From Pirellulales bacterium (GTDB lineage: Bacteria > Planctomycetota > Planctomycetia > Pirellulales > JALHPA01): a stretch of DNA of 64,000 nt. A program made the position numbers and the translations under genes. Location: positions 7,169 to 71,168 of the forward strand of contig JBGSSS010000210.1 of the NCBI GenBank assembly GCA_041736895.1, in the 5' to 3' direction. Below the pieces are notes generated by a model. It ran no database searches, had not been told where the DNA came from, and saw nothing but the letters and a program-made list of their open reading frames with translations. Positions 6,013 to 55,761 of the stretch are shown here, in pieces. Positions within the stretch are counted from its first letter, which is position 1. Each line of letters starts with the position of its first letter.

Positions 6013-6043
6013 AAAGAATCATTAAGCATCACTGCCGCAGCAT

Positions 6044-6078
6044 CTCCAATCCCGAATCCCCAACCCCTAATCCCTCGC
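6044..6078 (+). repeat. C-rich heptanucleotide tandem array (CCCCAAT type)
   Basis: CTCCAAT CCCGAAT CCCCAAC CCCTAAT CCC. The last C-run ends 14 nt before the pssA ATG. Confidence 0.8.
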
Positions 6079-6088
6079 GCAGCGACAA

Positions 6089-7033
6089 ATGATTCGCCAG
6101 GAACCAACGCCGTTGAATGATCCGCCGTCCGGACGGCGGCGATTTGGGCGCGGGCCACGGCGCTTGCGGGCGGTGGCCGTGCTGCCGACGTTGTTCACGC
6201 TGGGGAATTTGGTCTGCGGTTTTTTTGCGATCGCCGTGACTTCGCGGATTCATAAACCGGAATCGGCCGAAACTCCGATTACTCAGAAAATCAATTTTCA
6301 AATTCCCTGGTCTCTGGAAATCCCTTGGACTCTGGATTCGACCGACCCGACGCACAACATGATGCTCGCCGGGTGGCTCATCTTTCTGGCGATGATTTTC
6401 GACGCGCTCGATGGTCACGTCGCGCGGCTGACCAAGGCTTCATCGCAATTCGGCGCACAGTTGGATAGTCTCTGCGATGCGGTGACGTTCGGCGTCGCGC
6501 CGGGATTATTGCTGGTAAAAATGGTTCCATCCTTTGAATATTATTACTCGGGGGCGGTGTGGATTATCGCTGCCGTCTACGCCTGTTGTGCGGTACTGCG
6601 GCTTGCGCGGTTCAATGTCGAGACGGGCGAAAAAGACGATCATTCGACGTTCCAGGGCTTGCCTAGTCCGGCGGCCGCGGCGAGTATCGCGGGGTTTGCG
6701 ATTTTGTTTTACACGCTGCGCGTCGAAACGCCACGGTATGAATGGAAGCCTTCGTTGGACACGGTGGTCCAGCATGTGTTGCCATTTTTTGCACTGGCCG
6801 TGGCGCTGCTCATGGTCTCGCGCATTCCCTATCCGCACATCGTCAACCGTATGTTCCGCGGCAAGAAAAGCTTCGGCCACTTGGTCGGCTTGATCTTTGG
6901 CATCGTCGCGATCGCCATGATCCGCGGCTATGCGGTGCCGCTCGTGAGTTGCGCCTTTGTCCTTGGCCCGCTGTTCATTTTTCTTTGGCGTCGCTGGCGC
7001 GAGCCGGAACCAGAGCCGGAGAGTTTGTTTTGA
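6089..7033 (+). CDS. pssA: CDP-diacylglycerol--serine O-phosphatidyltransferase
   Basis: CDP-alcohol phosphatidyltransferase motif DALDGHVARLTKASSQFGAQLDSLCD. Multiple TM segments. Adjacent to psd. Confidence 0.9.
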   Translation: MIRQEPTPLNDPPSGRRRFGRGPRRLRAVAVLPTLFTLGNLVCGFFAIAVTSRIHKPESAETPITQKINFQIPWSLEIPWTLDSTDPTHNMMLAGWLIFLAMIFDALDGHVARLTKASSQFGAQLDSLCDAVTFGVAPGLLLVKMVPSFEYYYSGAVWIIAAVYACCAVLRLARFNVETGEKDDHSTFQGLPSPAAAASIAGFAILFYTLRVETPRYEWKPSLDTVVQHVLPFFALAVALLMVSRIPYPHIVNRMFRGKKSFGHLVGLIFGIVAIAMIRGYAVPLVSCAFVLGPLFIFLWRRWREPEPEPESLF

Positions 7034-7173
7034 GTTGGGCCTTGGGCGCTGGCTATTGGGCGCTGGTCAGCATTTTGATGCAGAGTTCTCTCTCGAATAA
7101 TTCATTGGTTCTTGAAGCATCGTTTAACTTTGTAATTCTCCGACCAACGCCCAATCCCCAACGCCCACAACCC
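7034..7173. repeat. inverted pair of G-rich / C-rich heptamer arrays
   Basis: GTTGGGCCTTGGGCGCTGGCTATTGGGCGCTGG (7034-7066) and CCAACGCCCAATCCCCAACGCCCACAACCC (7144-7173) flank a 77-nt AT-rich spacer. The right arm ends at the ribE ATG. Confidence 0.75.
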
Positions 7174-7764
7174 ATGTTCACCGGTCTCGTCGAACATTGC
7201 TTGCCATTGACCGCGGTGATCGAAGAGCCGCCGGGGCGAAGGCTCGTGCTCGCCGTGCCGGCCTATCGCAGTGAGATTACGCTGGGCGAGAGCATCGCAA
7301 TTAACGGGTGCTGTCTGACCGTCGTCGAGATCGATGGGGACAAGCTCCATTTCCAAGCCGGACCCGAGACGCTCGCGCGGACGAACCTGGGCCAGCTTGC
7401 GACCGGCAGCCGGGTGAACATTGAGCGCTCGCTACGCTTTGGTGATCGGCTCGGCGGGCATTTGGTTACGGGGCACATCGATGGCGGCGGCACGGTCGCA
7501 AGGCGCGAGGATGTCGCCGATTGGTCGACGTTTTACTTCGCCGCGCCGCCGAACCTGCTCCGGCAAATGGCGAGCAAAGGCTCCATCGCCGTCGATGGCG
7601 TGAGCCTGACCTTGGTCGAGGTCACCGACCAACACTTCTCGGTCCAACTCATTCCGCACACACTCGCCGTGACGACACTCGGCGCGAAAAAGGTTGGCGA
7701 TGCGGTGAACCTGGAAACGGATCTGCTGGCCAAGTATGTCGAGCGGCAGTTGGTGTCCAAGTAG
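7174..7764 (+). CDS. ribE: riboflavin synthase alpha chain
   Basis: MFTGLVEH...INGCCLTVV...VNIERSL...GHLVTGHIDG...VDGVSLTLV is the duplicated lumazine-binding pattern. The ORF-track N-terminal extension (from 6742) is rejected. Confidence 0.9.
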   Translation: MFTGLVEHCLPLTAVIEEPPGRRLVLAVPAYRSEITLGESIAINGCCLTVVEIDGDKLHFQAGPETLARTNLGQLATGSRVNIERSLRFGDRLGGHLVTGHIDGGGTVARREDVADWSTFYFAAPPNLLRQMASKGSIAVDGVSLTLVEVTDQHFSVQLIPHTLAVTTLGAKKVGDAVNLETDLLAKYVERQLVSK

Positions 7765-12166: not shown

Positions 12167-12193
12167 CAAAGCCCAGGGGTTCACCCCCTGGGA
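12167..12193 (+). repeat. CAAAGCCCAGGGG-N4-CCCCTGGGA palindromic repeat
   Basis: CAAAGCCCAGGGGTTCACCCCCTGGGA. Identical to 33491-33517. Confidence 0.7.
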
Positions 12194-14100: not shown

Positions 14101-14108
14101 GATGGAAT

Positions 14109-14934
14109 GTAGCCTACTTGCCCCGCAAGTAGGCGAAACGGGGGAAGAGTTGATTTTACAAAACACGCGAGTAGTGAATTACTTGCCGATAATCAATCCC
14201 AGCTTCTTTCGGGTTTTCGATGATGTATCGACGTAAGCGAAAAAATTGCGCCTCGGTTCTGATCAAATGATCAAACGAATCTGGTTGCCAAAAACGTCCG
14301 TGCACATCAATTGCTTGATTGATCTGAAAGGCAGTCAAATGCTTCCAATTGCGGCAAATCTTCAGCAGCGAAACATCGTCAGGAAATGCTGCGATAAGAT
14401 GCACATGATTCGGCATAATGATGAAGTCATAGAGGATGTAATCTCGTTCATCGTCATGCTGCAATACATCCGCGACGATTTGAGCAATTCGCTTTTTGCG
14501 CAAGACGCATTCGCCATAAGCACGATCAAGCAATCGATTCCAACCTTGCGTCATTTTGCGTTTATATTCAGTTTGCAATGTTGGATTCAGTTGACTGACA
14601 TTGACCTGCAACTGTTTTCCCTGAACAACAATTCCCTTGTCTCGTAACCAAGCATTCCGTTTTTGCAGCCAACGATCCAGCACAGCCTGGGGAATCGAGT
14701 CCCAGGTGCGCCAGGTAATGAAACTCAGGGTCGCTGCTTGAGACCAGTGCGGCAATCTTCGCTGCACAACGGACTTTTCCGCAGCGTGATCATACGTGCG
14801 GAAAGGAATCGACAGTTTTGGAATGTCCGACATAAAGTCGTTGCTCTTTTGTGAAGACAAGCAAGGTTCGGAGTCTGAGAGTCTTTCTCGCCAACTTGCG
14901 GGGCAAGTTGGCTACATTCAGGCAAGTTGGCTAC
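14109..14934 (-). mobile_element. RAYT locus: transposase gene bracketed by inverted REP hairpins
   Basis: Left GTAGCCTACTTGCCCCGCAAGTAGGC (14109-14134). Right GCCAACTTGCGGGGCAAGTTGGCTAC (14890-14915) plus half copy GGCAAGTTGGCTAC (14921-14934). The arms are reverse complements apart from one compensatory base pair. Confidence 0.7.
14156..14833 (-). CDS. REP-associated tyrosine transposase (RAYT, IS200-like Y1/HUH family)
   Basis: HUH motif in IIMPNHVHLIAAF; RFWQPDSFDHLIR; catalytic-Tyr region LRRYIIENPKEAGI. ATG at 14833 (TTG at 14860 possible). Flanked by inverted GTAG-headed hairpins. Confidence 0.8.
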   Translation of the reverse strand: MSDIPKLSIPFRTYDHAAEKSVVQRRLPHWSQAATLSFITWRTWDSIPQAVLDRWLQKRNAWLRDKGIVVQGKQLQVNVSQLNPTLQTEYKRKMTQGWNRLLDRAYGECVLRKKRIAQIVADVLQHDDERDYILYDFIIMPNHVHLIAAFPDDVSLLKICRNWKHLTAFQINQAIDVHGRFWQPDSFDHLIRTEAQFFRLRRYIIENPKEAGIDYRQVIHYSRVL

Positions 14935-14944
14935 TCTTAGGCCG

Positions 14945-18522: not shown

Positions 18523-18585
18523 AAGGATAAAGGAACAAGGAAAAAGGTGGTTTTACCCCACCTTTTTCCTTATCCCTTTTTCCTT
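18523..18585. repeat. long imperfect palindrome (core GGAAAAAGGTGG-TTTTACC-CCACCTTTTTCC)
   Basis: Core stems at 18539-18550 and 18558-18569, extended by AAGGATAAAGGAACAA / TTATCCCTTTTTCCTT. Lies in the divergent promoter region between 18148 and 18612. Confidence 0.55.
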
Positions 18586-18611
18586 CGAATATAAGTGCGA
18601 ACATTTCAATT

Positions 18612-20066: not shown

Positions 20067-21158
20067 ATGCCTGATCTCTTTTCTGAATTCGAACTCCGCG
20101 GCGTTCGTCTCAAGAATCGCATTGCGATGTCGCCGATGTGTCAGTATTCGGCCATCGATGGGGTGCCAAATGAATGGCATCATGTCCATCTCGGGTCGCA
20201 TGCGATTGGCGGCACGGGGTTGATCATTGTTGAGGCGACGGCCGTCTCGCCCGAGGGGCGGATCAGTCCGGGTTGCACGGGGCTCTGGAACGACACGCAG
20301 CGCGACGCATTTGTGCCGATCGTGAAGTTCCTTGAAAGCCAAGGTTCGATGCCGGGCATTCAACTGGCCCACGCGGGCCGCAAAGCCAGTGCCCAGCGGC
20401 CGTGGGAAGGGGACGCGCATCTGCCCGCCGAACATCCCGACGCCTGGGAACCGGTCGCGCCGTCGGCGCTGGCGTTCGGCGCAAATCTGCCGCGCGTGCC
20501 GCGTGAATTGACCATCCCCGAGATCACGAAGATTCGCGAAGACTTTGTCGCCGCGACGAAGCGCGCCGTGCAAGCCGGGTTCAAGTGGCTGGTTCTGCAC
20601 TTCGCGCATGGGTACCTGGGCCAGAGTTTCTTTTCGCCGCTGGCGAACAAACGCACCGATGACTGTGGCGGCAGCTTCGAGAACCGCGCACGGTTCTTGC
20701 TTGAGACGTTGCAAGCGGTGCGCGAAGTTTGGCCGGCCGAGTACCCGCTCACCGCGCGGCTCGGCGTGATCGATTATGTCGAGGGCGAACAGCCGCTCGA
20801 AGAATCAATTGAACTCGTGCGGCAAATGAAAGCCGCCGGGCTCGATCTGGTCGATGTCAGCATGGGCTTCAACACGCCGAATATCAGTAATGTGCCGTGG
20901 AAAGAACACGCCTTCCTCGCCCCGATCGCCGCGCGGATCAAGCAAGAGGTCGGTATCCCCGTCACGTCGTCTTGGAACTTCAGTGACACGGTGAAGATCA
21001 ACGAACTGATCCAAAACGGGTCGATTGACTTGGTCAATCTCGGCAAGACGCTGCTCAGTGATCCCAACTGGCCGTATCATGCGGCGCAGACACTCGGAAA
21101 AAATCGACCGCAGGATATTCTGGCGATACAATACGGGCATTGGCTGAAGCAACGCTGA
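20067..21158 (+). CDS. NADPH dehydrogenase / NADH:flavin oxidoreductase, Old Yellow Enzyme family (YqjM/NamA-like)
   Basis: LKNRIAMSPMCQYSA...WHHVHLGSHAIGGTGLIIVEATAV...HFAHGYLGQSFFSPLANKRTD. Confidence 0.9.
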   Translation: MPDLFSEFELRGVRLKNRIAMSPMCQYSAIDGVPNEWHHVHLGSHAIGGTGLIIVEATAVSPEGRISPGCTGLWNDTQRDAFVPIVKFLESQGSMPGIQLAHAGRKASAQRPWEGDAHLPAEHPDAWEPVAPSALAFGANLPRVPRELTIPEITKIREDFVAATKRAVQAGFKWLVLHFAHGYLGQSFFSPLANKRTDDCGGSFENRARFLLETLQAVREVWPAEYPLTARLGVIDYVEGEQPLEESIELVRQMKAAGLDLVDVSMGFNTPNISNVPWKEHAFLAPIAARIKQEVGIPVTSSWNFSDTVKINELIQNGSIDLVNLGKTLLSDPNWPYHAAQTLGKNRPQDILAIQYGHWLKQR

Positions 21159-21164
21159 GCAAAT

Positions 21165-21192
21165 GATAGTTGATAATGGACAATTGACAATG
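21165..21192 (+). repeat. AT-rich heptanucleotide tandem array (GACAATT/GATAATG type)
   Basis: GATAGTT GATAATG GACAATT GACAATG, between the OYE gene stop and the cupin gene start. Confidence 0.75.
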
Positions 21193-21217
21193 AATACGAG
21201 TCGTTGCTTCGTTCTCC

Positions 21218-22692: not shown

Positions 22693-22895
22693 CGTCGCAC
22701 CCCGTGTCCAGAGATTGGCTGAAGACCATACAAGAATACGACAGCTCGAGGTTTTCGAACAATCCCGATTCGCCGAGCCTTTTCCGTAGTCCAAGCTGTC
22801 AGCATCGAGTATCTTGAGGAATTCCGCGCGGCGGGGAAGATCGCGCGGGCGATCCAGCGGGCGGAACCGCTGGGATTCGACAGGGCATGGGTATG

Positions 22896-22931
22896 CCCCC
22901 AACCCTCAATCCCGAACCCCCAATCCCGAAC
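22896..22931 (+). repeat. C-rich heptanucleotide tandem array (CCCCAAT type)
   Basis: CCCCCAA CCCTCAA TCCCGAA CCCCCAA TCCCGAA C. Ends 2 nt before ATG 22934. Confidence 0.8.
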
Positions 22932-22933
22932 TC

Positions 22934-25900
22934 ATGCCTCCGTCCCGTCCCGCTTGGCTGTGGTGGATGTTTGCTGGCACGATTGTGCTGAGCGCGTTTC
23001 TGCTCTTCTTGGTCCAGCCATTGATCGCCAAGATTCTCTTGCCCTGGTTCGGCGGGTCGACCGGCGTGTGGGCGACGTGTGTCGTCTTCTTTCAGGTCAT
23101 GCTTGTCTTTGGCTACGCTTACGCGCATGCGCTGACCACATACTTGACACCGAAGCAACAAATGCTGACGCATCTGGCATTGCTCGGGCTCGCGGTCCTT
23201 GCCGCCGGATGGTCGATCATGCCCGGCGATTCGTGGCGGCCCGAGAATAGTGATCTGCCGATTCTCAAATTGGGCTTGCTGCTGTTGCGTTATGTGGGGC
23301 TGCCGTATTTCGCGCTGGCGACGACGGGTCCGCTGGTCCAGGCTTGGTTCGCGCGATTGTTTCCGGGCAAGACGCCGTACCGGTTGTACGCGCTGTCGAA
23401 CTTCGGCTCGCTGGCGTCGCTGCTCCTGTTTCCGACGGTGTTCGAGCAGTTTTTTGGCCTGCGCTTGATGTCGACGGGGTGGTCGTTGCTGTTTGCGATG
23501 TTCGCGGCGTTGGCTGCGGGCGTGGCGTACTTGACCTGGCGTGAAGCGCCGCATCCTATTTCAGCAGTTCCAGCCTCAGCAACTGATGTTGTAGAAGAAC
23601 AAAACAGCAAGGGACAAAATCGCAAGCAAGTCAAACTCAAGCGGAATGAACTTCCAACTTCCGAAGCCGCCGCCGAACCGACTTGGGGCAGTTATCTGCT
23701 CTGGCTTGCGCTGCCGGCGTTTGCGTCGTACATGCTCGTCGCCGGCACGAATCACCTCTGCCAGGACGTCGCCTCGGTGCCGTTCTTGTGGGTGATGCCG
23801 CTGAGTTTGTATTTGATTTCGTTCATCATTTGCTTCGATCACGAGTATTGGTATCAGCGGCTGGTCTTCGCGGCGATCGCCTTGGCCGGGTTGTACATGT
23901 CGGCCGGCATGTACCAACTCGATTTCGAGCCGACGCTTTCCCAAGGGCTGCTGGTGCGCGGCACATGGCCCGTCACTCGGCCGCTGTATGAATCCATGGA
24001 TTGGTACAATCACCCCACCCGCAAGCACGAGATTCCGAATTATCAACAATGGCTTGCGGAGTTGGAGAAAACGAAAAAAGAGCAGCATGACAAGACGCCC
24101 CTGGTACAAGCCGACTTGCCTGCGATGTATCAAGATTATGTCAAAGTGAAAGATCAGGAGCGGTACGATGCTTGGCTGGCCGCAGAAAAAGAAGTCGACC
24201 CGCTCGTGAAGGCGAACCTTGAAAGCACGGAGTACATCAAAAAAAAGTACAAAGCCTGGCTCCAGCAACGCGCAAATATCAATTGGCTCGAGAATGAACA
24301 ACACGTCCCGCTGCTCAACGTCAATTTCATCGGCCAGATTCTCGCCCACTGCGTTGGGCTGTTTGGGTTGTTCATGATCTGCCACGGGGAACTGACGCGG
24401 CGCAAACCGCCGGCGCGCTACTTGACGTCGTTTTATATGATGATCGCGATCGGCGGCGCCATCGGCGGCGCGCTGGTCAGTTTGGCCGCGCCGTTTGTGT
24501 TCGATACCTATGCCGAGTGGTTCCTCGGTCTGATCTTGGCGCTGCTCTTGGTGGGCGGGCTGTTGTTGGATCAACCCGGCGGCGAATGGTACAAGTCGCG
24601 GTTCTTTTGCCTCGCGCTCCCCGCCGCGCTGGTTTCTCTCTATGTGATCTGGAAAATTTCCAACCTGCCCGAAGAGTACCTGAATTGGGCTGACCCCGAG
24701 GCGTATCAGAAGTATCTCGAAGAGAAAAAAGGAGTCGCCGCGCTCAAAGAGGTTTCTTTGCCCGAGGGAAAACTCTTCGGACTGCATTACGCGTTGCCCT
24801 TGATGGGACTGCTCTTTGCGATTATCGGCATCGGATTTTATGCGTTATGGGAGCGCGCCTGGCAGCGCGACAAACTGCGCTTCTGGGTCGTCAATTTGTC
24901 CATGTTGCTCTTGGTATGTTTTGCGGTTTGGGATGGCTTGAATTTTCTGGAACTAATCAGAGATGCCGAGGGTCAGGAAAAAGCGAATTGGAGCCTATAC
25001 AAAGACCTGCCCCCGATCCCGTTTGATTCCGACGAATCCTACCAGCAACTGATGGCCAGCGCTCGCGAAATCCGGAGCCAAAACACGAATGGTGCTGAAG
25101 AAGACGAGGACGACCCCTTCTATGAAAAGAAGATCTTCCAAGGCCGCAACTTCTACGGCGCTCTCTCGGTCCATGAACAGATTCACCTGATTAATCCCGA
25201 ATACAGTTTTCGCTATCTAATGCACGGGCGAATTCTACATGGAAATCAGTTCCTCGAAGGGCCGTTGCGTTATCAGCCGACGAGCTATTACCCGACCGAT
25301 AGCGGGGTAGGGTTGGCCATCGGGCATTTTGGCCGGACGAATAAGCTGGAGCTCGATGAGGTCAAGTTTGGCAACCCAAACTATGTTGCCTATGCCGCGT
25401 TTATCGCCAGTAAGATCGGTTTCACCAGCAAGTTAAGCCTTGTTGTGAAGTCGCCGGCTTTCACAGCGATGTTTATCGCTAACAATGTGTGTCTCGCCAG
25501 CAAAGTCAGTTTCTTTTTTTACGAATCTCAACGGAACATCAATCTGGATCTCGAAAAATTTTTAGCCGAGTCTGCGGCGCCTGCCTCTTATGCCGCGTAT
25601 ATCGCCAGCAATGTTGGTCTCGCCAGTAGGCTTGGTCTCGCGGCCAGCGAAGCTCGCCGGGATCGCAAGCTGAGTCTCGAAGAATTCAAAGTCATGTTCT
25701 TGAAGCCTGCCACCTATGGTGCGTTCCTGACTACCAACATCGGCCTTGCCATCGCGGATAAGATGCACATCGGCGCGATTGGGCTTGGCACTGGCACAAT
25801 TGCTGCTTATGGCAAACAGCCCGGCCAGCAATTCACGATCTACGAAATTAATCCGCTCGTCGAGCAACTCAGCGCGACGGATGACGGCTTTTTCAAGTAC

Positions 25901-26522: not shown

Positions 26523-26969
26523 TTACTTCGGACAACTCCCGCAGTGCCCCTTGAGCAGCACCTCGGTCACTTCGAGCTTCTTCGCCGCTTTGTTCGTCGG
26601 CTTGATCGCGACGTTGACGTCCTCCAGGCACGTCACCTCGCCGCAATCGACGCAGACAAAGTGCGGGTGCTCGAGCGTGCCATCTTGATTTGGCCGCTTG
26701 AGTTCAAACCGATAAAGATGATCGCCGAGTTCGATCCGCGAGACAAGACCCGCGTCCGAGAGCTCGATCAAGTTGCGATAGATCGTCGCGCGGTCAAAGC
26801 CCTTGGACTCGAGCGCGTCAGCCATTTGCGCATGGGTCAGCGGCGAAAGCGCATCGATCAGCATTTGCATGACCCAAAGCCGCGCGGCCGTCGAGCGCAG
26901 ACCCGCCTCGCGGAGTTTCTTGCGGACAATGTCCAGCGAAGGTTCGGCGGCAGCAGGAGGTTTGGGCAT
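26523..26969 (-). CDS. Fur family transcriptional regulator
   Basis: GLRSTAARLWVMQMLID...THAQMADAL...ATIYRNLIELSDAGLV winged helix; HPHFVCVDCG...CGSC metal sites. ATG at 26969; upstream codons are a translated repeat. Confidence 0.85.
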   Translation of the reverse strand: MPKPPAAAEPSLDIVRKKLREAGLRSTAARLWVMQMLIDALSPLTHAQMADALESKGFDRATIYRNLIELSDAGLVSRIELGDHLYRFELKRPNQDGTLEHPHFVCVDCGEVTCLEDVNVAIKPTNKAAKKLEVTEVLLKGHCGSCPK

Positions 26970-28981: not shown

Positions 28982-29008
28982 TCCCAGGGGAAAATCCCCT
29001 GGGCTTTG
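28982..29008 (-). repeat. CAAAGCCCAGGGG-N4-CCCCTGGGA palindromic repeat
   Basis: TCCCAGGGGAAAATCCCCTGGGCTTTG. Confidence 0.7.
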
Positions 29009-29026
29009 CAGGTTTCATTTCGCATT

Positions 29027-29061
29027 CCCCAACCCCCAATCCCGAATCCCCAACCCCCAAG
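29027..29061 (+). repeat. C-rich heptanucleotide tandem array (CCCCAAT type)
   Basis: CCCCAAC CCCCAAT CCCGAAT CCCCAAC CCCCAAG. Ends 6 nt before ATG 29068. Confidence 0.8.
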
Positions 29062-29067
29062 CAACCC

Positions 29068-29529
29068 ATGTCCCCCGAAACACAACTCACCGCTCTTGGC
29101 ATTACCCTCGCGATCCCCGGCAAGCCGGCCGGCGTTTACAAACCGGTTGTGCAGGTCGGCAACCTGCTGTACCTCAGCGGGCACGGGCCGATTCAGACCG
29201 ACGGCAAGGGACTCTGCGGCAAAGTTGGGGCGGACCTGACGCTGGAGCAAGGCAAAGAAGCCGCGCGGCTGACGGGCCTATCGCTGCTCGCGACGCTGCG
29301 AGCGTACCTCGGCTCGCTCGATCGCGTCGTGCGGATCGTCAAAACGCTCGGCCTGGTGAACAGCGCGCCGGACTTCACGCAACACCCTGGTGTGATCAAC
29401 GGCTGCAGCGAATTGCTTCGCGATGTCTTCGGCGAAGACGCAGGGATCGGCGCACGGAGTGCGTTCGGCGCTGCAGCGCTGCCAGCCGGTTGGGCGACGG
29501 AGATTGAGTTGATTGTGGAAGTCGCGTAG
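29068..29529 (+). CDS. RidA/YjgF family protein
   Basis: VGNLLYLSGHGP...GKVGADLTLEQGKEAARL...ARSAFGAAALPAGWATEIELIVEV. ATG at 29068 after a heptamer array. Confidence 0.85.
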   Translation: MSPETQLTALGITLAIPGKPAGVYKPVVQVGNLLYLSGHGPIQTDGKGLCGKVGADLTLEQGKEAARLTGLSLLATLRAYLGSLDRVVRIVKTLGLVNSAPDFTQHPGVINGCSELLRDVFGEDAGIGARSAFGAAALPAGWATEIELIVEVA

Positions 29530-33517: not shown

Positions 33518-33586
33518 GCATTCTGGGCATGCAGCAACTCTCCTTTTCACGCACTCTCCCCCCGGTCATTGACCGGGGGCTAATTT

Positions 33587-41643: not shown

Positions 41644-42342
41644 TTAGCGGCGGCGACGGCGGAGCAGCAATCCACCGACGCTGGCAGCCGCGCCGAGCAC
41701 GCACAAGCCTGGTTCGGGAACCGCTACCGGGGTTTGGCGAATCGTAAACGAGGTGACCCCGGGTGGCAGATCGGGCACATCGATCCGAAACTGATACGTT
41801 TCCGAACCGGTCGACTGCAGACCATTGGAATAGACCAGTAGATCTTCGTTCAACGCCACATTAGTAAAGGCGCTCGAAGTCGGAGGCGTGTCAAAGTTGG
41901 GAAAGTCGAAATCGAGGCCATCAAGCGCACCGCCGATATTGGTGAACCCCGCCCCGAACCCATAACCCAACTGCATCGTGTAGCTTGACCAAGGCAGAAA
42001 CGTATTGTTGTCAACCGATTCAAAGACCTTGTATTCGGTCGTGCCGCCAGTATTGGCGACATTGAAAACAATGTCGATGTAACCGACATTGTCAAAGCGT
42101 TTGACTGGCACCGTGATATTATTGTCCGTAATACCGCCGGCGATGTTGTCGTTATTCATATTCAGCGTCAAGATAGCTGGCACTGAAACAGTTCCCAATC
42201 CGGGACCAGTGCCAGCTTGACTGCCGAAAATTTGGGCGCTCGTGATCATCCCCGCATGAGAAATCGCGGCACACGAGAAGAATGCGATAAGAGTGGAGAC
42301 AAGCTTAGAGCTTGCGGTAAAGCGACTGATTTTAGCCAACAT
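41644..42342 (-). CDS. PEP-CTERM sorting domain-containing protein
   Basis: Signal peptide. C-terminus VAVPEPGLCVLGAAASVGGLLLRRRRR. Confidence 0.8.
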   Translation of the reverse strand: MLAKISRFTASSKLVSTLIAFFSCAAISHAGMITSAQIFGSQAGTGPGLGTVSVPAILTLNMNNDNIAGGITDNNITVPVKRFDNVGYIDIVFNVANTGGTTEYKVFESVDNNTFLPWSSYTMQLGYGFGAGFTNIGGALDGLDFDFPNFDTPPTSSAFTNVALNEDLLVYSNGLQSTGSETYQFRIDVPDLPPGVTSFTIRQTPVAVPEPGLCVLGAAASVGGLLLRRRRR

Positions 42343-44751: not shown

Positions 44752-45110
44752 TCATTCTTTTTTCCTGTTGCTCCCGGCGCAACACCGCCAGACTCTCGAA
44801 AAACCGGGCAAAGCTGGGAAAAATCCGGGAAACACCACCGAAAACGCGCGAAAAAACCCAAAAAAATCGCAAAAAGATCGGAAAAAAACGCAAAAAGAAC
44901 GAAAAAAATCAGAAAAAAACGCAAATGTGCGCGCCCCCAATGTCCGTGTTTAAACGAACACCGCTTCGAGCGACTACCACAATCCCGCGGGCAAACCACA
45001 CTCGCCGCGCGCCGGGTCAGGCCCAAGCCGGACAAAGCGCGCGCCGCCCGATTTTGGGGTGTTGCCTTAAAAGGCAACACTCGCGGGGCTTTTGGGTCGT
45101 TCGTCGCCGC
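44752..45110 (+). repeat. phased-A-tract element, copy B
   Basis: Same orientation and architecture as copy A. A-tracts at 44799-44919. Hairpins at 44767-44783 and 45061-45078. Confidence 0.85.
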
Positions 45111-55659: not shown

Positions 55660-55761
55660 AGCTCCGAAGGAGCGGCATTGTGTAGCCAGGGGTGTAAGCC
55701 CCTGGTTGACTTCACCAGGGGCTTGCACCCCTGGCTACATTCCTTCGCTCCTTCGGAGCTT
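55660..55761. repeat. nested ~100-nt palindrome containing a GTAGCC-headed doublet
   Basis: AGCTCCGAAGGAGCG...GTAGCCAGGGGTGTAAGCCCCTGG...CCAGGGGCTTGCACCCCTGGCTAC...CGCTCCTTCGGAGCT. Confidence 0.6.

Follow-up and report, generated by a model that had tools for sequence, protein, structure and literature searches.

Short tandemly repeated repetitive (STRR) sequences are defined in heterocystous cyanobacteria, in which they are often strung together as long arrays without mismatches (as many as 26 units in Nostoc), and cyanobacterial STRR1 heptamers of the type CCCCA(A/G)T were reportedly described by Mazel and colleagues in 1990. Here we analysed four C-rich heptamer arrays that lie just upstream of start codons on the + strand of a 64-kb stretch of DNA from a Pirellulales bacterium (64,000 nucleotides; hereafter the window), with array 3, upstream of a gene for a fused MFS/spermidine synthase, as the focal site. 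Like STRR1, these arrays are tandem heptamers that include exact CCCCAAT units, are non-coding and are situated near gene ends; in contrast to STRR1, they are short (4-6 units), heterogeneous and found in another phylum. An earlier note on this DNA, made from the letters alone, had called them STRR-like, which is apt for the units, but exact CCCCAAT is present in arrays 3 and 4, most units being variants (CCCCAAC, CCCGAAT, CCCTCAA), and the host is not a heterocystous cyanobacterium, as the closest named homologues come from Pirellulales/Pirellulaceae.

The closest described class is that of Rehm, Wurmthaler, Li, Frickey and Hartig (2015, PLoS One; PMC4692102), who reported G-rich heptamers in Xanthomonas (GGGAATC/(GGGANTN)n, GGGNATC) and in Nostoc PCC 7120 (GGGGA(C/T)T) and cited the Calothrix heptamers (STRRs) as a prior report. 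Two Xanthomonas genomes contained 186 and 183 arrays, and ~90% of Xanthomonas arrays were intergenic. In Xanthomonas and Nostoc four units were preferred, and arrays favoured the 0-50 bp upstream of open reading frames (ORFs) with the G-rich repeat in the non-coding strand; mean distances to the two flanking ORFs were 28 and 160 nt. Many of the arrays formed convergent inverted pairs, most of the repeats were transcribed, and the corresponding oligonucleotides formed G-quadruplexes (G4) and i-motifs in vitro, as judged by circular dichroism (PMC4692102). Neither the class nor its positional bias is new, both being already in that study. The earlier note was aware of no description of such arrays in Planctomycetota; we found none for Pirellulales in the literature searched, but an excess of G-patterns had been reported for one planctomycete, Isosphaera pallida (Huang and Mrazek 2014; PMC4060949).

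The window arrays are members of this strand-asymmetric G/C-rich heptamer simple sequence repeat (SSR) class (GGGNATC/GGGGAYT; STRR1 type). All four sites have at least two tandem 7-nt units (at least 14 bp) with a tract of three or more G, in non-coding DNA 0-14 nt upstream of a gene, with the C-rich strand as the sense strand and about four G-tracts, and one of the four is an inverted pair (7034-7068/7142-7174). As in the class described by Rehm et al., the associated genes are unrelated housekeeping genes, and a subset of arrays forms convergent inverted pairs. The window arrays differ in their Pirellulales host, in their mixed units and in reaching the start codon itself in a genome poor in Shine-Dalgarno (SD) sequences; moreover, relatives of the window genome bear units unable to form G4 at the same sites. 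The reading of their function that we tentatively prefer, at a probability of roughly 0.45, is that the arrays offer ribosomes a G-poor, unstructured place to land on SD-less genes (SD-independent initiation), together with translational coupling at ribE. The comparison adds a wider phyletic range, quadruplex potential that appears dispensable, the replacement of the SD by arrays, and an arrangement of stop codon, stem and start codon.

Arrays at start codons that lack a Shine-Dalgarno sequence

Direct reading of the sequence and a Tandem Repeats Finder (TRF) search both bore out the claim that C-rich arrays precede four + strand genes (Table 1), with TRF returning period-7/14 arrays of 2.5-4.9 copies at 6042-6074, 7144-7174, 22897-22931 and 29027-29060. 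Each array consists of 4-6 mixed units (CCCCAAC, CCCCAAT, CCCGAAT, CCCTCAA, CGCCCAA), is 31-46 nt long and contains 52-62% C and 3-6% G. The C-rich strand is the sense strand at all four sites, and the gaps between arrays 1-4 and their ATGs are 14, 0, 2 and 6 nt, respectively (through to ATG 6089, array 1 ends ...ATCTCCAATCCCGAATCCCCAACCCCTAATCCCTCGCGCAGCGACAA). No gap contains a GGAG-like motif, and GGAG, GAGG and AGGA are absent from -20 to -4 of all four genes; as the earlier note had maintained, the arrays occupy the SD position and the SD motif is missing.

Table 1. Positions of the heptamer arrays and of the genes that they adjoin in the window.
Feature	Positions	Strand	Sequence or evidence
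Array 1 (solitary)	6042-6078	+	ATCTCCA ATCCCGA ATCCCCA ACCCCTA ATCCCTCGC; 10-14 nt 5' of the pssA-like ATG
pssA-like CDP-alcohol phosphatidyltransferase	6089-7033	+	Pfam PF01066 (CDP-OH_P_transf), E 1.4e-17; orthologues begin at the same MIR(Q/H)EPTP
G-rich arm, inverted partner of array 2	7034-7068	+	GTTGGGCC TTGGGCG CTGGCTA TTGGGCG CTGG
Array 2, C-rich arm	7142-7173	+	GACCAACGCCCAATCCCCAACGCCCACAACCC; abuts ribE ATG 7174
ribE, riboflavin synthase	7174-7764	+	Pfam PF00677 (Lum_binding), E 2.9e-47; 196-199-aa homologues begin MFTG
Array 3, focal site (solitary)	22895-22933	+	GCCCCCAACCCTCAATCCCGAACCCCCAATCCCGAACTC; runs up to ATG 22934
Fused MFS/spermidine synthase, 1168 aa	22934-26440	+	database protein P0001 100% identical, 1168 aa, start 22934
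Array 4	29023-29067	+	CATTCCCCAACCCCCAATCCCGAATCCCCAACCCCCAAGCAACCC; runs up to ATG 29068
RidA/YjgF family	29068-29529	+	Pfam PF14588 and PF01042; orthologue starts conserved

On the complementary strand, each array has 4-5 tracts of three or more G with loops of 2-5 nt, which agrees with the earlier note in that the G4 sequence rule is satisfied. Within the 64 kb, five (G3+N1-7)x4 motifs were observed compared to 0.78 +/- 0.98 in Markov resamples; four of the five are the arrays, and the G-rich strand is the - strand in each of these. A candidate fifth array at 41945-41972 was rejected because its G4 motif (41947-41968) is coding, within a - strand PEP-CTERM gene. A composition scan of the window yielded no arrays of opposite orientation, a repeat search found no inverted partners for arrays 1, 3 and 4, none of which is palindromic, and a window scan placed no Rfam family at the arrays at gathering score.

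The four array-associated genes are functionally unrelated; homologues of the focal product are named fused MFS/spermidine synthase and belong to Pirellulales/Pirellulaceae. Orthologue conservation sets in exactly at the four ATGs, and intergenic lengths vary by non-multiples of 3. Thus, the arrays are non-coding, and the possibility that they encode a PNPQSP-type N-terminal extension was rejected. Gene callers nevertheless traverse arrays of this kind, which leads to false N-terminal extensions or wrong starts. RibE was overcalled by two pipelines (244 aa from TTG 7030 in Logan, and 240 aa for the orthologue P0122 in JGI), which made it 44-48 codons too long (start miscalls at L001 1046 and L129 3001), and the MFS/spermidine synthase start was placed 36 nt short in L126 (10001) and L127 (10001). 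The claim that ORF callers read through the arrays therefore stood for ribE, but not for the focal gene, which was called correctly at 22934.

An SD-like motif preceded 18 of 100 genes in the clade, and leaders contained 21% G compared to 29% in bulk DNA. Planctomycetes are among the low-SD phyla, for which leaderless or S1-dependent initiation has been proposed, and non-SD genes fold more weakly around their start codons (Nakagawa et al. 2017; PMC5397173). When 104 genes were compared, the four array leaders ranked among those predicted to have the least structure, with an unpaired probability of 0.65-0.94 vs a mean of 0.52, and the array 4 leader was the least structured of all (predicted minimum free energy of 0.0).

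Such leaders have a functional counterpart in the G-less, CA-rich enhancers exemplified by the omega leader of tobacco mosaic virus (TMV), which are said to act in Escherichia coli without an SD via protein S1 (work attributed to Gallie and Kado in 1989 and to Tzareva, Makhno and Boni in 1994). By analogy, the arrays would act most like these SD-independent leaders, as the window leaders are also G-poor, C/A-rich, repeat-bearing and unstructured and adjoin the start codon without an SD. The likeness is one of function only, since omega is viral in origin and its sequence is unrelated to that of the arrays.

Site 2 had been taken for a lone array, but its C-rich arm has a G-rich inverted partner that begins on the coding strand one base past the pssA stop codon (7031-7033); this partner had been overlooked, as had stop-adjoining arrays of opposite orientation in general. 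According to the repeat search, the arms (7036-7068 and 7142-7174) are 33 nt long, 79% complementary and 73 nt apart. The RNA of the pssA-ribE spacer was predicted to fold with -56.3 kcal/mol (z = -5.15), with the pssA UGA and the ribE AUG region at the base of one stem. The orthologous spacer of the relative L129 has the same paired architecture (predicted -58.5 kcal/mol, z = -6.8), and in L124 the pairing is built from another unit, with (CTCACAA)n and a TGGGTTGTGAGT arm that lies 0 nt after the pssA stop. At ribE, stop, stem and start are thus joined in one geometry.

Translational coupling by the unmasking of a downstream start codon in a long-range mRNA structure is a classical mechanism, e.g. 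in RNA phage MS2. The pssA stop and the ribE start likewise share one stem base, but here complementary heptamer arrays make up the stem, which is not found in all relatives and is known from predicted folds. Judged from this geometry, coupling would be its most likely function. In a pssA-ribE transcript, the ribE start would be buried at the base of the long stem, and a ribosome terminating on pssA would open the stem and either expose the ribE start or be handed to it, whereby translation of ribE would become coupled to that of pssA.

Orthologous leaders and arrays in other phyla

Leaders were compared with those of syntenic relatives whose RibE and PssA proteins are 88-93% and 88-92% identical, respectively, and whose third codon positions are 54-71% identical; a metagenome scan with the pssA-like protein returned two relatives only. 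The pssA leader of L128 retains four of five units nearly unchanged, with 43 of 50 positions (86%) identical between -50 and -1 compared to 63% at third codon positions. Elsewhere, the pssA leader carries CTCCCCAATCTCTAACCCCCATCCCCCAATCCCC (L123), a C/A-rich array of the CACAATC/CCCAAAA type (L129), two copies of CCCCAACGCCTAAA (L130), or CTCACAA-type units with an inverted TTGTGAG arm (L124). The ribE leaders of L128, L130 and L131 are short spacers with two copies of TTCTAACTCCNNNN and have no G between -43 and -3. The leader of the focal gene contains two copies of CTTCTTCCTCCTNA in L004 (85% protein identity), is pyrimidine-rich and free of arrays in the more distant L125 and L127, and lacks an array in L126; the RidA-like gene is preceded by a degenerate array in L125, by a pyrimidine-rich tract in L127 and by no array in L126. 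Overall, arrays were degenerate or missing at 62-68% protein identity.

Units and copy number changed between relatives while position and strand asymmetry were kept. Arrays of CTCACAA have 2-3 G3 tracts, and those of TTCTAACTCC and CTTCTTCCTCC have none. Because relatives' leaders bear G-poor repeats that are unable to form G4, quadruplex potential is not a conserved property. As judged from these leaders, the persistent feature is a G-poor, pyrimidine/A-rich, tandemly repeated tract adjoining the start codon, and neither the CCCCAAT unit nor the set of four G-tracts is conserved. In L128, the array would lie inside an operon transcript, since the psd-pssA spacer is 56 nt long and consists mostly of the array. 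With regard to the repeat-number variation that the earlier note had raised, two sequencing runs of one population (L001 vs L002) showed no difference in array copy number, whereas both units and copy number differed between relatives.

The same asymmetry was apparent when period-7/14/21 arrays were collected by TRF over 166 kb of the clade and the nearest gene boundary was counted for each. On the sense strand, C outnumbered G in all 12-13 start-proximal arrays (<=26 nt), and G outnumbered C in every one of the 8-9 stop-proximal ones (<=16 nt), whatever their unit.

Beyond the clade, a pattern scan (CCCGAAYCCCCAAYCCC; one genome per species), which matches three of the four window arrays, gave at least 118 loci. 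The census comprised 220 arrays among the matches listed, at loci chosen by this one sequence pattern, and all counts that follow refer to these matches. Arrays were detected as at least seven exact rotated heptamers. Coding regions were called by the phase of GC content at third codon positions, as high-GC DNA contains spurious long ORFs that mislead calls by ORF length, and gene and start calls were heuristic. Most of the loci listed came from Lysobacterales (Xanthomonas, Rhodanobacter, Luteimonas, Dokdonella, Aquimonas); others came from Planctomycetota (Phycisphaerae, Tepidisphaerales, Gemmatales, Thermoguttaceae, Planctomycetaceae), Acidobacteriota and Gemmatimonadota, and a single cyanobacterium was among the matches listed. 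The 220 arrays stem from these four groups and from further taxa. The class therefore reaches Planctomycetota and, by pattern scan, Acidobacteriota, Gemmatimonadota and many Lysobacterales.

The 3' end of the C-rich strand adjoined a start codon on the same strand in 95 of the 220 arrays (median 15 nt, first quartile 3 nt; these distances are biased low, as the first start-like codon past the array was taken) and a stop codon on the opposite strand in 85 (median 3 nt, interquartile range -1 to 6; stop distances are unambiguous). The other (5') end lay ~60 nt from its neighbour, and 11 arrays were intragenic. Planctomycetota contributed nine start-proximal (median 3 nt) and six stop-proximal arrays (median 0 nt). 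There were 71 inverted pairs, in every one of which the G-arm lay 5' of the C-arm. Of the 55 pairs with both flanks classified, 47 lay between co-directional genes, and 23 of these 47 reached from <=8 nt past the stop to <=20 nt before the start; G-arms began a median of 3 nt after stops. Compared to random placement, which the earlier note had named as the outcome that would speak against it, the census across phyla revealed a polar geometry at starts and stops; the source genome itself entered the comparison through the 64-kb window.

In the SD-using Lysobacterales, 36 of the 39 array-adjacent starts within 20 nt were ATG. An SD-like motif accompanied only 2 of 33 arrays at <=12 nt from the start, compared to 6 of 6 at 13-19 nt, which indicates that many Lysobacterales genes are expressed with an array in place of the SD.

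Lysobacterales arrays (L006-L121) also share a conserved head before the first unit (GCTCTTGCG/GCTTTTNCG) and a conserved tail after the last (AATCCCGGC; CCCGGC), and these ends suggest a defined element rather than a free microsatellite.

Proposed landing sites for ribosomes and competing explanations

Under the preferred reading, slippage of 7-nt or 14-nt units would both create the arrays and drive their turnover. The arrays would be transcribed as part of a leader or of the spacer between cistrons, with their C-rich strand in the mRNA and at the SD position. Selection would keep the tract G-poor, pyrimidine/A-rich and therefore unstructured, and the 30S subunit, probably via protein S1, would load on the start codon without SD pairing. 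As strand asymmetry and adjacency to starts and stops survive replacement of the unit, also by units unable to form quadruplexes, the focus shifts from DNA G4 biology to roles at the level of mRNA, such as SD-independent initiation and coupling.

Several observations weigh against this interpretation. It rests on sequence and predicted folds. No function, functional gene class or regulatory role was found for the repeats studied by Rehm et al. (PMC4692102). The depletion of G in leaders in general is modest, and array leaders, being G-poor, are trivially predicted to have little structure, although this composition is exactly what is conserved. The paired hairpin upstream of ribE is missing in the close relatives L128, L130 and L131, and pssA-ribE coupling is therefore not conserved. 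No sigma-70-like promoters were found near the arrays, a search that is uninformative for a planctomycete. Finally, translation initiation does not account for stop-adjoining arrays of opposite orientation, so that a pure tolerance model, in which G-rich leaders are purged and C-rich ones tolerated, fits much of the data. No reading covers everything; in particular, any mechanism for the 71:0 order of the arms and for the G-rich orientation near stops is conjectural.

A broader proposal, which we regard as speculative and quite unlikely as a whole, would cover both ends of the gene. Heptamer arrays of any unit might constitute a polar device at ORF boundaries across phyla, with a purine/G arm 0-6 nt past the stop, a pyrimidine/C arm 0-12 nt before the next start in place of the SD, and a stem joining stop and start. 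The terminating ribosome would unmask the downstream cistron or be handed to it (SD-independent coupling), and solitary C-arms would be SD-free landing pads.

Among the rivals to a landing-site function, the one that survives best, although we still consider it unlikely, is that the arrays are neutral or selfish, slippage-prone microsatellites from which selection purges only the harmful orientations (G-rich RNA near starts, intragenic repeats), so that the survivors look polar. Rapid change in unit and copy number, degeneration or absence at 62-68% protein identity, the unrelated nature of the genes, and the negative findings of Rehm et al. all fit this explanation, as does the general over-representation of heptamer SSRs in bacteria (PMC4692102). 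However, avoidance alone does not explain why arrays end within 0-6 nt of stops and 0-15 nt of starts with ~60 nt at their other end, why the order of arms is 71:0, or why the SD is lost exactly where arrays reach the start, and G-poor repeats persist at the same leaders though synonymous sites are near saturation.

It is improbable that the arrays modulate transcription or promoter melting through a DNA G4 on the template strand or an i-motif on the coding strand. This explanation draws on the excess of G4 motifs in the window, in which all four arrays take part, on the 4-5 G-tracts per array, which match the published preference for four units, and on the in vitro folding of similar oligonucleotides into both structures (PMC4692102). 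Nevertheless, orthologous arrays in relatives whose RibE is 88-93% identical fall short of G3 tracts while keeping position and asymmetry, two other heptamer families in the window (TTGAYAA and AAGGAAA; see below) share the geometry without G-tracts, and the mRNA holds the C-rich strand, which is incapable of forming an RNA G4. The G4/i-motif capacity to which the earlier note had pointed is thus not conserved in orthologous leaders, which bear G-poor repeats without C3 tracts. From these comparisons, the G4 capacity of the complement looks like a by-product of a CCC-containing unit in this lineage, and not like a selected property.

We are still more doubtful that the arrays are the halves of structural RNA hairpins similar to repetitive extragenic palindromic (REP) elements, which would terminate transcription, guard 3' ends or undergo RNase III cleavage that separates cistrons, with solitary arrays as decayed halves. 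REP elements and their composites (bacterial interspersed mosaic elements, BIMEs, and REPINs) are likewise abundant and intergenic and often form inverted pairs right after stops, between co-directional or convergent genes, and the 71 pairs among 220 arrays, the conserved Lysobacterales ends, the long stems predicted for site 2 and its L129 and L124 orthologues, and G-arms at a median of 3 nt past stops are all in keeping with them. The arms of the arrays differ in being tandem heptamers of variable number in a polar order. Symmetric hairpin formation cannot yield this 71:0 order, only one of the four arrays in the window is paired, and no U-tract follows the stems. A link to the gene at 14156-14860, which resembles a REP-associated tyrosine transposase (RAYT), was rejected because its flanking hairpins differ from the arrays. 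REP/REPIN elements mobilised by RAYTs are imperfect palindromes of fixed length, which also flank their cognate RAYT gene, but arrays 1, 3 and 4 are not palindromic; with unrelated hairpins around this gene, there is no sign of REP-type mobilisation.

Rho utilisation (rut) sites are stretches of C-rich, G-poor, unstructured RNA of ~60-80 nt upstream of the termination zone. That the arrays are Rho-loading tracts, which would terminate untranslated transcripts entering an ORF in the sense direction (after failed initiation) or antisense from its 3' end, is very improbable. Their rut-like composition and lack of structure, and the fact that polymerase entering an ORF from either end would yield C-rich RNA, by which arrays at starts and at stops would be explained together, are set against a length of 31-46 nt, below that of typical rut sites, against the lower C content of U-rich units in relatives (TTCTAACTCC), and against a geometric argument that is itself only inferred.

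Other repeats and hairpins in the window

The landing-site reading concerns the C-rich arrays, but other repeats lie close to them or resemble them in geometry. Upstream of array 3, a block at 22810-22890 is conserved in L004 (9805-9880; 85% protein identity), has no Rfam match and contains small hairpins (GATCGC-GCGG-GCGATC and ATCCAGCGG...CCGCTGGGAT). Recurrent small hairpins of the types CCCAGGGG-N5-CCCCTGGGCTTTG and CCCCCCGGTCATTGACCGGGGG sit in leaders and spacers at 28983-29010, ~12170-12192 and ~33557-33578, with one copy at a distance of 24 nt upstream of array 4, and are also present in L125, L126, L127, L130 and L131.

A second heptamer family, TTGAYAA/TGGAYAA (complement TTRTCAA), is GATAAT-rich and resembles a Fur box. 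It occurs at 21168-21193, one copy located 10 nt past the stop at 21158, and as inverted pairs on both sides of fur (26523-26969, - strand), at 26444-26475/26489-26515 and 26975-27007/27036-27067. In geometry it matches the C-rich arrays, as one arm lies a few nt past a stop and its counterpart precedes the fur ATG by 6 nt, and it is kept around fur in L004, L125 and L127. Judging by sequence, these arrays could act as operators for Fur, as boundary elements of the C-rich array kind, or in both ways. A third family, of AAGGAAA units and their complement TTTCCTT, forms a ~30-bp hairpin with a 5-nt loop at 18523-18590, the pyrimidine arm of which ends 27 nt before ATG 18612; the hairpin is also found in L130 at 697-758.

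The RAYT-like gene (14156-14860, - strand) has a syntenic orthologue in L004 with a weak match to PF01797 (Y1_Tnp), and is flanked at ~14108-14140 and ~14888-14935 by REP-like hairpins of the GCCAACTTGC-GGGG-CAAGTTGGC type. Two matches to the Acido-Lenti-1 RNA exceed the gathering score and are the sole Rfam matches in the window; they are intergenic, inverted and 10 nt apart (55660-55705 on the - strand and 55715-55760 on the + strand). Phased A-tract arrays with a period of ~10.5-11 nt (GAAAAACGCGG and AAAAAACCCAA types), which are a signature of intrinsically curved DNA, extend over 2648-2772 and 44798-44925.

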